Source: Candidatus Woesebacteria bacterium (GTDB lineage Bacteria; Patescibacteriota; Microgenomatia; UBA8517). Taken from it: DNA of 64,000 nucleotides. A program made the position numbers and the translations under genes. Where the stretch lies: assembly GCA_016700095.1 (NCBI GenBank), contig CP065002.1, positions 996,145 to 1,060,144 of the forward strand, read 5' to 3'. Under the pieces are notes generated by a model. That model was not told the origin of the DNA, searched no databases, and was given only the letters and a program-made list of their open reading frames with translations. Below are positions 53,178 through 59,392 of the stretch, piece after piece; the first letter of the stretch is position 1, and every line of letters begins with the position of its first letter.

Positions 53178-54302
53178 TTATGCCTTAGAAGTGTTAACGA
53201 TACTTTGACGCTTTGAATGTTTCAATCCATTTGAGCCATTCTTTTCTTCCCAATCACCCGACTGTTGCGAGAGAATTGAAAAAAGCGAACATTCCCTTAT
53301 GTCTTTTGCATTTAAGATAAATTGCATCACCCTCTCACTCCCAATTCCGTACCCCGCGTGCGGTTTTGTTTTTCCCGCCATAATAATGTCTTCCAAATAC
53401 CAGGTAAAATCGCTATATGTTCCGCCTCTTTTTTTGTGAAGATCAAACATTGTTGAGGTGATTAATCTTTCCTTGAGTTTTTTCCCATCATGTTCGCGCA
53501 CCGCAGACCCGACCGCTTCACCGGCGTTTGGTAAAATTAGATCTGCGCTAAGGACAACCTTGGGATCGTCCTGCGATACTTTCATGTTAAAAAATTTAAT
53601 TTCTTTCGGATAATGTGTAATAAATACCGGAATCTGTCGCCCACTTTCTTTCTGGTTACCGTTTAATATATCGACTACTTTTTGCTCATGTTCCGCTTTT
53701 AAATCATCGCCAAAAGCTAAACTTGTAAATCCTGACCATTTAAGTAAAATAACCGCCTCCGAATAAGGAATTTGATAAAAGGGTTTTTGTGTTACTGTCT
53801 TTAACCAACCAGTATCCAGATTGTAGACAGTCTCAAGTTCGTGAGAGCACGACGCAACTACATTTGATACTAGTGCTTTGACAGCCGACTCCACATGCGA
53901 TAAAAGTGTTGTAAACATTTTATTCTCACTGTAATTTGCCAAACTCATTCCCGCTATCGTGCAATCAAATTCCTCCTCCACTAATCTAAACTGCCTCAAA
54001 TGCCTTACGTCTTCTGTTTCTTCGTCACGACCACTGTGGATTATCGTATAAACTCCGGGGAAATATTGTAGCGACTGTTCCAATGATAACTGTCCTGTCT
54101 GTGTAAAAAACAATGGAAGGTTTAGTCTATTTCCAACTTTAAATAGTGTATCGACATTTTCGCAAGCTCCCGTAATTCCCACAATTTCGGGGACATCTAC
54201 ATATGTAAGCCCTGTTTTTCGATAATGATCATGAATTGCATAATTGATACTGGAGTTTATTTTTATCAGAGTGGGCAGTTTACAGCTTACTTTATTCGAC
54301 AT
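53178..54302 (-). CDS. Stand-alone class II aminoacyl-tRNA-synthetase-like catalytic core (AsnA-type asparagine synthetase / AsxRS paralog)
   Basis: Motif-2-like LRQFRLVEEEF and motif-3-like AGYGIGSERVMQFIL. No anticodon-binding domain. 374 aa. Confidence 0.45.
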   Translation of the reverse strand: MSNKVSCKLPTLIKINSSINYAIHDHYRKTGLTYVDVPEIVGITGACENVDTLFKVGNRLNLPLFFTQTGQLSLEQSLQYFPGVYTIIHSGRDEETEDVRHLRQFRLVEEEFDCTIAGMSLANYSENKMFTTLLSHVESAVKALVSNVVASCSHELETVYNLDTGWLKTVTQKPFYQIPYSEAVILLKWSGFTSLAFGDDLKAEHEQKVVDILNGNQKESGRQIPVFITHYPKEIKFFNMKVSQDDPKVVLSADLILPNAGEAVGSAVREHDGKKLKERLITSTMFDLHKKRGGTYSDFTWYLEDIIMAGKTKPHAGYGIGSERVMQFILNAKDIRECSLFSILSQQSGDWEEKNGSNGLKHSKRQSIVNTSKA

Positions 54303-54504: not shown

Positions 54505-56856
54505 TTAATTTACACATTTACATCTAGTCCAGTCCGCCACAATTCCGGAGCAGGTATTTGATCCGGCAGAGTACATGATTTGCGTACACGTAGCAATACC
54601 GCCAGACAGCGGGAGTAACTGACAACCTTGCGATGTACGATCGTAGTACTTTCCATTTATTCCCAGGGAGTCAGTACCAATAGACGTACACGTCAGTCCT
54701 ATCGAATTACACCTGGTGTTGCAGTTCTGATTAGTGCCGGAATTCAATATGACTTGCGGTTGCGGTGTTGGCGGAACCGGTGTTAACGTTGGGGGAACTG
54801 GAGTCAATGTGGGCGGTACTGGTGTTAACGTTGGGGGGATTGGAGTTGGGGTTTGGTTGTCATCAACTGTTACTCTGAATGTTGCCGTATCAAACTGTCC
54901 AAATTCATCGGTCACTTTTACTACAAAAGTATTCAAGCCAACAGCTGACAAAGGTACCGACGAAGAAACCATCAATCCATTACTGCTTCCATCCAAAGTC
55001 AACCAACTTGGGCCAGACACAATACTATAAATGTCGGTATACGGATTCTCATCTATTACATGAGGCACTAAGTAATATGAGTAGAAACTTCCAACTGTAC
55101 CATTGTATGAGGATATAATTGGATCAGCATTGAAATATGGTGCAGCATTAGGCACAGTGGTTGGAGTAGGAGTAGGAGTAATAGGACTTGGTGCAACATT
55201 ACATTTCGCACCAAGATTGTAGGTATGAATAGCGGAGGGTTGTGGATTAGCAGCCGGGGACAAATTTATGTCCAAATTCAGTTGCTGATAAATATTATAA
55301 GTATTATACGGCGGATAACTTAAGTCTGTGTAAGATCTCAAATTACTTGCGTAGTATGTTGAACCATCCCTGGCAACATAAAAAGTAATAATTGCGTTAC
55401 GATAATTATCAATAGAAATTCTTGGCACATTCACGGTGTATTGTGTATTTGAAGTTTGAATCACAACTTGACTGGGATCCAACACGAGATCAGGATGAGC
55501 ACCATCATTGTAAGTTCTAAAACTAAGTGTTAGATAGTTTGTCGATGCATTGGTAATCAATGGGGTATAAACACCGTTATAATAATCTCCATATACTTTA
55601 TCAGTACCCTCAAGGAAGGTGCTGTTGTCGCTCATTTTTCCACCAACGAAAATGCGAACTCCCTGATAATTTGCAGGATTAACAGGATACACGTTTACCA
55701 CATTATTCAATGCCAGAGAAACTTGTGAAGCAACAGTTGCATGACATGTGTTTTCTGCAGGAGGTGCTATCACACTAATATTTGTCGGTGAAACGACTGA
55801 GTAATCTACTAAATCAATCTCGTTACAAACACTTCCATTGCAACTGGCTTCTTTTAAATAATGACTAGACCCTGTAGAAAAATTTGTATCCAAACTTATA
55901 GGATAACTTCCCGGAGTTGCATTATTGGCATTGAGAAAGTAATAAATGATTGGATCTGCCTCTACATCGTAAAGATTTAAATATCCAGAATCAACATAAG
56001 CTGATGTGAGAATTTTCGACACCTCAGGGGTAACACTGTAATGCATACTACCATTTATATAATTTTTTGTACCTGCATATGACATGTAAGTAAATGCGTT
56101 TGTATTTATGTTGAAATGGTCGACAAATCTTGTAACTCTATGGGCACTAGTTCCAGGCTCGGTAATATAGAGAGGAATATGAAACCGATCACCTTGCGCG
56201 ATCGTAACTCCCCTGACTCCCAGCTGTACAGTAGCATTAGGCTGTTTAGTTAAAACTAACTGTGGAGCTGTTTTTGTCTCTCGTGAAGAGTAAGTCGCAC
56301 TACCGTTTGACAGTGTCTCAAGTAAAAAGATCACTCTAAAGGCATCATTTTTTTGTACAACCTCGGATACATCCAATTCAACATAACCGTCGACACTCTT
56401 TTTAGTGTTATCAATAGTTCCGATTAATTTTACCGGATAGGAATCAATTACCTTTAAATTATTGTCTGTTTCTTTCACGCTCCCACCTAATTCATATACG
56501 TTAACAGTTGCAAGATCTGATTTGACTAGCTTAAGACGAAGTACGGCTGTAGTTTTTTGGTCACCGGTTGGCACATCGAATCCGATGACTACTTTTGATT
56601 TCGCATAGGCTGTTGATGATACAACCAAAGTAGTCGATGTCCCGGAATTTATTTTAGGTGGATTGTTATATAAAGTTACATCAAACTTGGGATTATACTT
56701 GCCAGCCAGAGCGGCACGTGTTGATAAATCTGTTGGACGAGATACTATCCATACTGAAACAAACAATGAAAAAATCAGAAGAAATGGCGTAACCAATTTC
56801 AGGTATTTGGATTTGTTAATCCATTCACCAGAAAAAAATACGCCTAACCGCTTCAT
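54505..56856 (-). CDS. Large surface protein A: N-terminal signal-anchor, beta-rich body, (PTLTPVP)n linker, C-terminal Cys-rich domain
   Basis: 783 aa. Its N-terminus (MKRLGVFFSGEWINKSKYLKLVTPFLLIFSLFVSVW) is paralogous to that of 57291..59189. The C-terminal domain has about 12 Cys. Confidence 0.6.
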   Translation of the reverse strand: MKRLGVFFSGEWINKSKYLKLVTPFLLIFSLFVSVWIVSRPTDLSTRAALAGKYNPKFDVTLYNNPPKINSGTSTTLVVSSTAYAKSKVVIGFDVPTGDQKTTAVLRLKLVKSDLATVNVYELGGSVKETDNNLKVIDSYPVKLIGTIDNTKKSVDGYVELDVSEVVQKNDAFRVIFLLETLSNGSATYSSRETKTAPQLVLTKQPNATVQLGVRGVTIAQGDRFHIPLYITEPGTSAHRVTRFVDHFNINTNAFTYMSYAGTKNYINGSMHYSVTPEVSKILTSAYVDSGYLNLYDVEADPIIYYFLNANNATPGSYPISLDTNFSTGSSHYLKEASCNGSVCNEIDLVDYSVVSPTNISVIAPPAENTCHATVASQVSLALNNVVNVYPVNPANYQGVRIFVGGKMSDNSTFLEGTDKVYGDYYNGVYTPLITNASTNYLTLSFRTYNDGAHPDLVLDPSQVVIQTSNTQYTVNVPRISIDNYRNAIITFYVARDGSTYYASNLRSYTDLSYPPYNTYNIYQQLNLDINLSPAANPQPSAIHTYNLGAKCNVAPSPITPTPTPTTVPNAAPYFNADPIISSYNGTVGSFYSYYLVPHVIDENPYTDIYSIVSGPSWLTLDGSSNGLMVSSSVPLSAVGLNTFVVKVTDEFGQFDTATFRVTVDDNQTPTPIPPTLTPVPPTLTPVPPTLTPVPPTPQPQVILNSGTNQNCNTRCNSIGLTCTSIGTDSLGINGKYYDRTSQGCQLLPLSGGIATCTQIMYSAGSNTCSGIVADWTRCKCVN
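54765..54862 (-). repeat. About 4 tandem copies of a 24-nt unit encoding the PTLTPVPP linker
   Basis: Plus strand: ggcggaaccggtgttaacgttggg repeated with minor variation. The mirror ORF reads GGTGVNVGG x3. Confidence 0.7.
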
Positions 56857-57191
56857 ATATTACTAATAATGATTTGTCGTTTAATTAATGTCAATGGTTC
56901 ATTTAATTTGCACCTTAAGAAATATAGGTTGAACAATAGATGGGCATGCCACAAGAATCTGTGTTTTTCTGAAAGATGTTTCAAAAGAGTTTATTCACTC
57001 CTTCGCGTAAATCACACTTATAGGCACAATTTTTTTACGAAGTATGTACAAAAATCCATCAACGTTAACCACATCAATTTGGATATATATTTAATCAAAC
57101 TCTAAGGGGATATTATTTTCAACCCCATTAAACTACCAAGGTGTCACAAAAACAACGCTACCCCAAAATGAGAAATATTGTTAGGAATGAT

Positions 57192-57287
57192 TCTCTACCG
57201 ACTTTAGTCGGTAGTATCCGTCTTATGTTAAAGATTCGATCTAAAACCACTGATTGAAATCAGTGGTTTTAGACTTAACGAGAATAA
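57192..57287. repeat. Structured ~95-nt repeat element, copy 2
   Basis: Same two hairpins and tail as copy 1. The long stem carries a compensatory change (5' arm CTAAAACC / 3' arm GGTTTTAG, versus CTACAACC / GGTTGTAG in copy 1). It ends 3 nt before the stop codon of 57291..59189. Confidence 0.7.
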
Positions 57288-57290
57288 AAA

Positions 57291-59189
57291 TTATTGACAA
57301 CAAAGTTCAAAGGTCGAATTAACGTTACACGATTCATGATTTGGAAGACCACACCTTCCCGTTCTGGTTTTACCAAGATAACATACTAAACCAGCTCGGC
57401 AATCGGTCGTCTCTCGGCATAATCCATAACATGAACCAAAAGCAGGAGTGGCGGTGGGTGGTACCGGTGTCGCAGTTGGTGGTACTGGTGTCGCGGTGGG
57501 TGGTACTGGTGTTAGTGTTGGCGTAATTGACGGTGTTGGGAATACAGGTTGATCACCAAACACACATTCTCTAGCGCGCCACGCATTGTTGAACGATTCT
57601 ATTGAATAGGCAAACGATAAGGTTGCAACTTTGTTCAAAGCACTGACTCCGGTACTCGGATACACATCAATCTGATGTGTCGTCGATGTAACGTTATTAG
57701 CATGATACGAAGAACCATCTGTCGTGGGATAAAAAGCCATCCATTCATCATGTGTGGAATTATTGTATATTTGCACGGGAGGTACATAAATTGTTTTTTG
57801 TTCACCATCTATCATCAAAGAAAGAGTTCGTGGTTCAAAATTATGAGTAATTGCTTGAGGACTTGTTGGTCCATGAAATGCGAGTATTAAATGCTGACTT
57901 GCACCAGTTTGTAGCTGTGTATAAGTCGTGTTTTCGAGTGTTCCGTAATGTATCGTATTTGCCGACGTGGGTGGGATCGTGTTATTTGTCACTCCATAAA
58001 TTTCAATCTTAGCAAACAGTCCGGTAGGCCCGCCTGTATCAATTTCTGCATACGGAATATTTGCTTGCACATTTGTTACGGCATTGCTTACCGTAAGGCT
58101 TCTATGGCTTTCTGAATAAGGCAAATTGCAATACGGTACATTGTTTGTGATAGAAATCTGACTAGAACCGTTTACTGTTGCGTCTGTAATTGGAACAGTA
58201 TAAGGATTGATCAGTAAACTTCCACTTACCAAATTGTTGTTATATACAGTACCCACTGTTGCATTATCAGGAACCTTATACCACAGCTCAACCATATCGC
58301 CATCAATTTCCAAGGGACTAGTCGCTTGATTTGCCGTAATACCAAGAATTGGCGGAGTCAGAAAAGTTAGGTAGCAATTATGATTAGTTACTATACACGT
58401 ACTCTTTTTAATAAACCCCAAATAACTTAGTCTGGAGTCGGGATTTATCTGAAATTCGATATAACTAATAGTATCCTGTGGTGAAACAATATTTGATTTG
58501 AGTGGTACATAATCACCCGGCCTTGCTACTACATTTCCGTTTTTGACAAGCGTAAAGACGGTGCTTGTCGAAGTCGGAGAATTTAACACTAACTGCGGTT
58601 TAGTAGACGATTCTCGTGAATAATACGTATTTGTTCCCGTAACTAAGTTTTCAAGTAGAAAATATATCTTCACATTATCAACGCTATTTACCGTTTCGGT
58701 GACATTTATTTCCAAATATCCGTCAGACGATTTTTTCGAATTCGACATTTTTCCAATTAATTTTGTCGGATATGTGTCCAATACTTTCAAACTAACATCC
58801 GTCTCGCCTATCTCACCCATTAACAAATATACATTTACATCAGGAGTAACTGTTTTTTGTGGTTTTATTCTAAAAACAGCAGATTCATAGTTTCCATTTC
58901 CCGGGAAATCAAAACCAACAACTACCTTGGATTTTGCAGTTTTGGAAATTGAGGAAACAAGTGTTGTCGACTTATTCGGATCAATCTTTACTGCAGAACT
59001 ATATAAAGTCGTGTCAATTCTCGGGTAATAAATATTTACAGAAGAAGCCTTCGGTCTAAGCATACTCGGGCGAGATACAGCCCAAACCGATATGAAAAGT
59101 GAAAAAATTAATAGAAAGGGAGCAACCAGTTTTAAATACTTATTCTTTACTATCCATTCACCAGCAATAAACGCGTTTATACGCTTCAT
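57291..59189 (-). CDS. Large surface protein B: paralog of 54505..56856 with a (PTATPVP)n linker and a different Cys-rich C-terminal domain
   Basis: 632 aa. Its N-terminus (MKRINAFIAGEWIVKNKYLKLVAPFLLIFSLFISVW) matches that of protein A, and the body is alignable (KSKVV[IV]GFD...). C-terminus: AFGSCYGLCRETTDCRAGLVCY...CCQ. Confidence 0.6.
   Translation of the reverse strand: MKRINAFIAGEWIVKNKYLKLVAPFLLIFSLFISVWAVSRPSMLRPKASSVNIYYPRIDTTLYSSAVKIDPNKSTTLVSSISKTAKSKVVVGFDFPGNGNYESAVFRIKPQKTVTPDVNVYLLMGEIGETDVSLKVLDTYPTKLIGKMSNSKKSSDGYLEINVTETVNSVDNVKIYFLLENLVTGTNTYYSRESSTKPQLVLNSPTSTSTVFTLVKNGNVVARPGDYVPLKSNIVSPQDTISYIEFQINPDSRLSYLGFIKKSTCIVTNHNCYLTFLTPPILGITANQATSPLEIDGDMVELWYKVPDNATVGTVYNNNLVSGSLLINPYTVPITDATVNGSSQISITNNVPYCNLPYSESHRSLTVSNAVTNVQANIPYAEIDTGGPTGLFAKIEIYGVTNNTIPPTSANTIHYGTLENTTYTQLQTGASQHLILAFHGPTSPQAITHNFEPRTLSLMIDGEQKTIYVPPVQIYNNSTHDEWMAFYPTTDGSSYHANNVTSTTHQIDVYPSTGVSALNKVATLSFAYSIESFNNAWRARECVFGDQPVFPTPSITPTLTPVPPTATPVPPTATPVPPTATPAFGSCYGLCRETTDCRAGLVCYLGKTRTGRCGLPNHESCNVNSTFELCCQ
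57453..57525 (-). repeat. About 3 tandem copies of a 24-nt unit encoding the PTATPVPP linker
   Basis: Plus strand: ggtggtaccggtgtcgcagttggt repeated. Confidence 0.7.
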
Positions 59190-59392
59190 ATATTAATAAT
59201 GATTTGGTATCAAGCCAATGTCAATGACTCATTTTGAGCATAGTAATATGTCACTATCCAATATTTTTCATGCCTATCAGACAAAAGTTTATTTTCCGAC
59301 AAGGTACTTAATCTACGGCAATAAAACACGTGGCATTGAAATTAACAACTAAGTGTATTTAGTATTCAAGCTATGGATAAAAGTCTTATAAT

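Follow-up and report, generated by a model that had tools for sequence, protein, structure and literature searches.

Two adjacent genes on the minus strand of a 64-kb window of Candidatus Woesebacteria bacterium DNA (the whole stretch of 64,000 nucleotides [nt] of contig CP065002.1 that we analyzed) encode paralogous modular proteins of 783 and 632 amino acids (aa), referred to here as A and B. We consider it probable that A and B are membrane-tethered surface proteins for glycan binding or adhesion, that a Pro/Thr (PT) repeat near the C-terminus of each serves as a spacer, and that the two proteins diverged by module shuffling. As a pair of modular surface proteins, they are specific to their lineage but of a conventional kind, and the repeat-driven variability that an initial annotation of the sequence proposed for the locus is unsupported. 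All coordinates are positions in the window, and the features of A and B lie on the minus strand.

Results

Gene A (54505..56856; IPM62_05210, QQS38755.1) and gene B (57291..59189; IPM62_05215, QQS39597.1) each matched an NCBI protein exactly. Both are annotated there as 'hypothetical protein' of a Candidatus Woesebacteria bacterium metagenome-assembled genome, on a contig of 1,274,238 bp. The open reading frames (ORFs) and the identical NCBI entries confirmed the two adjacent genes of the initial annotation, although its word 'giant' is not apt for proteins of 632–783 aa. Comparison of A with B by tblastn gave an E value of 1e-70 with 32.5% identity across approximately 570–596 aa (composition correction off). 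The likeness was uneven along the proteins. When regional local alignments were scored as z against shuffled sequences (2000 shuffles for the Cys-rich modules), z was 27 for aa 1–40, 50 for aa 41–205 (about 50% identity) and 8.8 for a region that we call domain 3, and the intervening domain 2 (aa ~205–365) gave a non-significant value of –0.2. The body blocks that the initial annotation regarded as shared are therefore real for aa 1–205 and for domain 3, and not for domain 2. Over aa 1–202, the tblastn-based comparison gave identities of 54% at the amino acid level and 56% at the nucleotide level, and the codon was also the same at 48 of the 110 residues identical in A and B. Because nucleotide identity is only 56% in the best-conserved domain, there has been no recent conversion between the two genes. 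Judged by these sequences, A and B are true paralogues from an old tandem duplication.

The first 40 residues of A (56737..56856) and of B (59070..59189) have the same construction, in which Lys/Arg-rich residues 1–20 form a basic tail that is followed by an 18-residue hydrophobic stretch. The hydrophobic helix of A spans aa ~22–38, with a Kyte-Doolittle peak of 2.4. In the AlphaFold2 (AF2) model of B, a helix at aa 18–39 was the best-scoring block. Thirty of the 40 residues are identical (75%; 68% at the nucleotide level), which is less than the 'almost identical' N-terminus described initially. Because the basic residues precede the helix and all 12 Cys residues of each protein come after it, the N-terminus fits an N-in/C-out signal-anchor.

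We also observed that the stretch following the helix (aa 39–50; 56730-56745 in A and 59063-59078 in B), which reads SRPTDLSTRA in A and SRPSMLRPKA in B, resembles the sequences 'Q(R/N)FDIR(E/K/R)RA' and 'EKQEIREKA' of three adjacent surface-protein genes on two unrelated metagenomic contigs, L001 (positions 1-489, 534-1370 and 1380-2399) and L002 (378-1406 and 1421-2422), which are described below. The core of the stretch is DLSTRA in A and MLRPKA in B, and FDIRERA, FDIRRRA or QEIREKA in the L001/L002 proteins; it was loosely alike in all five N-termini compared, A and B included. No other protein within the window carried it. The pattern [D/E/M]-[I/L]-[R/S]-x-[R/K]-A may represent a common sorting or processing motif, which we offer as a lead and not as a finding.

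Beyond this stretch, A contains a CBM96/DNRLRE-type domain (aa 54–203; 56248..56697). The match to Pfam PF24517 scored 39.5 bits with the full protein and 43.9 bits with the excised segment (cut-off, 26), and it covered the model from end to end (profile positions 5–163 of 164), as in the CBM96/DNRLRE surface proteins and accessory proteins of carbohydrate-active enzymes (PF24517; 7vbo, 8wab). The same residues of B (58581..59030) form a homologue of this domain, which is approximately 50% identical to that of A (z, 50). Direct phmmer search of the PDB with A gave no match. A joint A/B profile matched 8wab, a DNRLRE domain protein, with an E value of 2e-16, and 7vbo, an alginate lyase that we take to be the founding structure of CBM96, with an E value of 3e-12. 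A and B aligned with DNRLRE repeats at the D..V, NYG-like, F-D, LRL, E.DV and Y.SRE...PQLV motifs. Unlike these repeats, in which the tryptophans of W.E..ITW are conserved, A and B lack them, and neither protein carries a catalytic domain of the lyase or phosphoesterase type. AF2 modeled this region of B mostly as beta-strand, with a pLDDT of only ~50–63. The first DNRLRE domains to be described were those of cell-surface proteins (PMC2447325). CBM96 is a type B carbohydrate-binding module (CBM) that binds alginate chains; it folds as a beta-sandwich of two antiparallel sheets, and the basic binding groove of TM6-N4 comprises Lys10, 22, 25, 27 and 31, Arg36 and Tyr159 (PMC9971899). Domains of this family typically occur in multidomain proteins that are secreted or lie at the surface (PMC2447325, PMC9971899), and A and B are likewise multidomain. 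The predicted beta-sandwich probably confers glycan binding on the two proteins.

Domain 2 was examined by Pfam and by PDB sequence searches. In B, aa 218–344 (58158..58538) gave a borderline match to the cohesin family PF00963, with 25.6, 25.0, 24.4 and 23.5 bits depending on the segment submitted (cut-off, 24.1); the match extended over profile positions 6–138 of 139 and persisted across the four segment boundaries. The positional counterpart in A (aa 205–365; 55762..56244) has diverged. PDB searches used each full-length protein and domains 2 and 3 as queries, and the weak cohesin matches of B domain 2 alone were suggestive: at E < 0.1, two 'autonomous cohesin' entries only (4wkz and 4n2o) were found, with an E value of 0.04. 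The motif common to B domain 2 and these entries is GDMVELWYKVPDNATVGTVYN / GDMATFRFKVPDNAEPGAVYN, and A bears DPIIYYFLNANNATPGSYPISL at the place equivalent to B GDMVELWYKVPDNATVGTVYN, as read from the sequence. Alignment of A and B domain 2 with the cohesins of L001/L002 by hhalign gave a probability of about 1% from very shallow profiles, and the pLDDT of the cohesin-like region of B in the AF2 model was 20–30. True cohesins fold as a jelly-roll beta-sandwich of nine strands. Overall, the balance tips slightly towards a cohesin-like domain 2.

Domain 3 belongs to an unnamed family and occupies aa 366–555 in A (55192..55761) and aa 351–546 in B (57552..58139). Its two ends are bracketed by cysteines in both proteins (Cys371 and Cys552 in A; Cys354 and Cys542 in B). 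The sole outside relative of domain 3 was a protein designated P0004, which matched profile positions 419–523 with an E value of 1.9e-4 in a search of 1.84e9 proteins. Domain 3 of A is followed by a He_PIG Ig-like domain (aa 580–664; 54865..55119), for which the excised segment scored 27.8 bits against Pfam PF05345 (cut-off, 24) over profile positions 7–95 of 96. This domain is present in A only, not in B, and PT stretches flank it on both sides.

Each protein ends in a Cys-rich orphan module, which comprises 83 aa in A (aa 701–783; 54508..54756) and 49 aa in B (aa 584–632; 57294..57440). Each module contains 8 of the 12 Cys residues of its protein, in A and B alike, and not about 12 and 10 as counted initially. 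We tried and rejected homology between the two modules (z, –0.05 to –1.3); the claim that unrelated Cys-rich domains follow the PT repeat was thus borne out, with similarity undetectable at a z of –0.05. Neither module matched Pfam or NCBIfam. No relative of either was found among 5.8e9 clusters searched with a chimeric query that included P0004, a search in which B matched itself and A itself was not listed.

Between these modules and the preceding domains lie PT linkers. In A, the first PT stretch, PSPITPTPTPTTVP (aa 556–569; 55150..55191), precedes the He_PIG domain, and Tandem Repeats Finder (TRF) reported a 6-nt array at 55163-55180 within it. The second linker of A (aa 669–700; 54757..54852) contains three TLTPVPP units (54769-54831). 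The single linker of B (aa 547–583; 57441..57551) contains one TLTPVPP and two TATPVPP units (57456-57518) and a partial TATP. The initial annotation described 24-nt repeats encoding PTLTPVPP or PTATPVPP, in three or four perfect or near-perfect units. By TRF, the period is 21 nt, or 7 aa (T[L/A]TPVPP), with 3.2 copies and 74% matches in A and 2.8 copies and 89% matches in B. There are three full units per gene, none of them perfect, since any two are identical at 15–18 of 21 nt (71–86%). The longest exact direct repeat is 17 nt in A and 14 nt in B. All seven positions at which the A units vary fall on the third base of a codon, leaving the peptide unchanged; by our own calculation, the chance of seven out of seven changes at third positions is approximately (1/3)^7 = 5e-4. 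Over 76 nt of linker DNA, A and B are 75% identical, and both paralogues keep the heptad. Because the A units differ only synonymously and the heptad was kept despite the 56% nucleotide identity of the genes, the repeat looks like an old, conserved structural spacer with its peptide under purifying selection, and not like a slippage tract. The 21-nt unit lies in frame, inside the coding sequence and distant from the promoter, and because it is a multiple of 3, changes in its number would not switch the reading frame on or off. Pro/Thr linkers are classical between the modules of extracellular proteins, cellulosomal and cellulase proteins included, and are often O-glycosylated.

The module content of A and B differs exactly at the PT-coding DNA, and the single linker of B (PVFPTPSITP-TLTPVPP...) reads like the start of the first A stretch joined to the A heptads. 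Because the differences sit exactly at the linkers, we infer evolutionary domain shuffling, in which modules were gained, lost or replaced through recombination in linker-coding DNA.

On the opposite strand, a GGTGVNV-rich ORF of 98 aa (54734-55030, plus strand) runs antisense to the PT repeat of A. We rejected it as a gene, regarding it as a mirror-image artefact of the repeat.

A conserved 44-nt block precedes each gene (56861..56904 for A and 59191..59234 for B). Each block contains TTGACA-17-CATTAT, which ends 9 nt before the ATG of A and 6 nt before that of B. The two blocks are 75% identical, and the –35 and –10 parts are conserved, whereas the spacer is not. No Shine-Dalgarno-like sequence was visible by eye between CATTAT and the ATG of either gene. 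The putative promoters suggest separate transcripts of A and B, which are possibly leaderless or near-leaderless. A perfect 16-nt inverted repeat (57240..57273) is located 18 nt downstream of the B stop codon; it is terminator-like, with a 2-nt loop and no clear T-run. The 434-nt spacer between B and A contains a second hairpin, ACTACCGACT/AGTCGGTAG. The only Rfam match on the locus was a sub-threshold one to the inverted repeat at 57240..57273 (psRNA14, 34 bits vs 60).

Database searches showed that the family is very small. We searched 1.84 billion representative proteins exhaustively with an HMMER profile of aa 1–560, which returned only A and B below an E value of 1e-10; the five weak matches besides were DNRLRE/CBM96 repeats. 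A and B each form a singleton 90% cluster. A whole-protein search with A against 5.8 billion clusters, in which Pro/Thr words probably filled the list of 8000 candidates, gave only A among the matches listed. A search with an N-terminal alignment gave no match, and the query proteins themselves were also not recovered. N-terminal and domain 3 alignments found no relatives on GTDB-species contigs, a collection that the source genome is evidently outside, or on JGI-metagenome contigs. NCBIfam gave no match for A or B, and no other ORF of the window combines a PT linker with a Cys-rich end. The public data searched contain no further paralogues or orthologues, and the lack of any further family member in the 1.84 billion representatives, the 5.8 billion clusters and the GTDB-species and JGI contigs told against the variable system of the initial annotation.

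Modules related to those of A and B were found on the two contigs mentioned above. P0004 on L002 and its relative P0008 on L001 each belong to a three-gene cluster (L001:1-2399 and L002:2-2422; Logan SRR22388125 / SRR22388241). The first gene of the cluster encodes a small protein that combines a membrane helix with a PT linker and a He_PIG-like domain. The product of the second gene has a membrane helix, then domain 3 or three Cys-rich stretches, another Cys-rich stretch and a dockerin. The third gene product consists of a signal peptide, then a cohesin and a PT/S linker, with a membrane helix at its C-terminus. The cluster resembles a compact cohesin-dockerin surface module of the non-cellulosomal kind. 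Like A and B, the cluster proteins combine an N-terminal helix and post-helix stretch with PT linkers, He_PIG-like, domain 3 (P0004), Cys-rich and cohesin modules, and adjacent genes have homologous N-terminal anchors and differing ectodomains. Unlike in A and B, the modules are distributed among three small genes, a dockerin is present and the CBM96-type domain is absent; the Cys-rich stretches show no similarity to those of A or B. The cluster adjoins ribosomal-protein genes.

The neighbors of A and B encode GreA, a CitMHS/MatC-type transporter, a class II aminoacyl-tRNA synthetase (aaRS)-like protein, a GHMP kinase, an SDR, an S51 peptidase, a serine hydrolase and a GNAT. The aaRS-like protein (53178-54302, minus strand; 374 aa) matched only tRNA-synt_2, the class II aaRS catalytic core, and no anticodon-binding domain was detected in it; instead of being a full synthetase, it may represent an aaRS paralogue, AsnA-like or of another type. 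The window yielded no tRNA genes. Its G+C content is ~37%, and the GC skew is negative over most of it, in parts whose genes lie predominantly on the minus strand.

Discussion

The initial description of A and B as paralogous and probably surface-exposed proteins agrees with the N-terminal anchor after basic residues, the extracellular-type domains and the even Cys numbers. As we would reconstruct it, an old tandem duplication in Candidatus Woesebacteria (Patescibacteria/candidate phyla radiation [CPR]) left two copies, each with its own promoter-like block. The N-terminal signal-anchor would hold each protein in the cytoplasmic membrane while the rest projects outward. In order from the anchor, the predicted ectodomain would present a CBM96/DNRLRE-type beta-sandwich, a cohesin-like beta-sandwich and a disulfide-bracketed domain 3, after which the Ig-like He_PIG domain is added in A alone. 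Next, a stiff spacer of Pro/Thr heptads, possibly O-glycosylated, would carry a small, putatively four-disulfide orphan module at the distal tip. Proteins built in this way most probably serve as cell-surface glycan-binding or adhesion proteins for host or matrix. In Saccharibacteria, epibiotic growth requires proteins of the envelope that have glycan-binding and dockerin domains (PMC10633639). The 21-nt repeats would act as a structural spacer and not as a mutational switch, and the paralogues would have diverged by gain, loss and replacement of modules at linker-coding DNA.

Several results weigh against this interpretation. Residues 54–203 of B had no direct Pfam match, so that, unlike the CBM96/DNRLRE proteins, B alone reaches no Pfam score. 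Cohesin was not reported in the full-length Pfam scan of B, and domain 2 of A had no Pfam match, to cohesin or otherwise. The AF2 models gave pLDDT values of 33.9 for domain 3 (3-sequence alignment) and 33.8 for full-length B (2-sequence alignment), too low for a fold to be read from them. The hydrophobic helix may be cleaved as a signal peptide instead of being kept as an anchor. Finally, the neighboring genes are unrelated housekeeping or metabolic genes and provide no functional context.

According to the initial annotation, the locus is a variable surface-adhesin system: the repeats, by slippage or recombination, would actively make variants, and C-terminal modules would be swapped between the copies. 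In both genes, in-frame tandem repeats do lie directly upstream of unrelated C-terminal modules, and the 76 nt of linker DNA, 75% identical between A and B, could be a recombination substrate. Nevertheless, we regard such a system as very improbable, because each gene has only three in-frame units of 71–86% identity with exact repeats of at most 17 and 14 nt, because on/off switching is impossible with a unit that is a multiple of 3, and because the saturation of third positions between units, with synonymous-only differences in A, marks an old and stable repeat. In addition, only two copies exist, and the databases searched contained neither silent cassettes nor further family members; at 56% nucleotide identity, the genes are too diverged for ongoing conversion. 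Phase- or antigenically variable repeat adhesins (contingency loci) resemble A and B in being surface proteins with in-frame tandem repeats. They differ in having many near-perfect units and documented copy-number polymorphism, as opposed to three imperfect units with saturated synonymous differences. A and B do not have the many identical or near-identical units of a contingency locus, nor does repeat number alter their reading frame or promoter spacing. What stands of the proposed exchange of C-terminal modules is its evolutionary part: the unrelated modules and the extra He_PIG domain at the linkers fit exchange, gain or loss during evolution, and not an active system. The combination of a conserved N-terminal half with unrelated C-terminal modules behind a flexible linker is also what a polymorphic toxin or bacteriocin-like protein would show, in which a conserved N-terminal delivery part would carry small, swapped, disulfide-rich C-terminal payloads that are released onto competitors or hosts, and the B module (49 aa, 8 Cys) is knottin- or defensin-like in size and Cys density, as read from its sequence. 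However, the spacers downstream of B and A (434 nt and 202 nt) contain only ORFs of 78 aa or less and no credible immunity-type ORF, Pfam and NCBIfam gave no match of either module to a known family of toxins or bacteriocins, neither a pre-toxin demarcation motif nor cognate secretion genes occur nearby, and there are no other family members with further C-terminal variants. We rejected a toxin/immunity-gene arrangement for want of supported downstream ORFs, and we consider the toxin interpretation as a whole extremely improbable.

Another explanation, unlikely but compatible with surface proteins for glycan binding or adhesion and in fact a refinement of that reading, is that A and B are anchoring scaffoldin-like proteins. 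Their cohesin-like domain would then draw secreted proteins with dockerins, made by the same organism, to the cell surface, and the CBM96-type domain and the Cys-rich tip would target the complex to substrate or host. In its favor, B lies at the gathering score of the Pfam Cohesin family, and its best PDB matches are cohesins; domain 3 is common to P0004, which has a dockerin (E 5e-4) and is encoded beside a gene with a weak Cohesin match; and the arrangement in L001 is paralogous. B resembles cohesin-anchoring scaffoldins and non-cellulosomal cohesin proteins (PF00963) in that one cohesin-like module is part of a linker-rich protein that is putatively cell-anchored and contains a CBM. Unlike scaffoldins, A and B would be anchored by an N-terminal membrane helix and not by a C-terminal SLH or sortase signal, each has one cohesin-like module only instead of multiple cohesins, and there is no cellulolytic context. 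Moreover, the cohesin match is borderline and confined to B, with none detectable in A, the profile-profile comparison with the L001/L002 cohesins was uninformative, and the 64-kb window contains neither a dockerin partner nor a dockerin-like Ca-binding motif anywhere. A more elaborate version, quite improbable in our estimation, would make A and B membrane-anchored scaffoldin-like adhesins of an episymbiotic CPR bacterium, in which a genuine cohesin recruits dockerin-tipped partners like P0004 and P0008, and lineage-specific disulfide-knot tips on Pro/Thr stalks give host or substrate specificity. If it were true, Patescibacteria would possess a cohesin-dockerin surface attachment apparatus, possibly sorted via the shared post-anchor motif.

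We return to A and B as probable glycan-binding or adhesion proteins of the cell surface. Patescibacteria rely on contact to other cells or to matrices, and most of their surface proteins are 'hypothetical proteins' that lack annotation. The A/B pair now has a domain map, which consists of CBM96/DNRLRE-type, cohesin-like, domain 3 and He_PIG modules, a Pro/Thr stalk and orphan Cys-rich tips, and it provides a small example of how modules appear to be gained, lost or replaced where the DNA codes for linkers. Modest leads are offered by the orphan Cys-rich tips, by domain 3 with its unnamed family and by the possible presence of a cohesin in a surface protein of the CPR. If the cohesin assignment holds, the pair would point to cohesin-dockerin assembly on the CPR cell surface.

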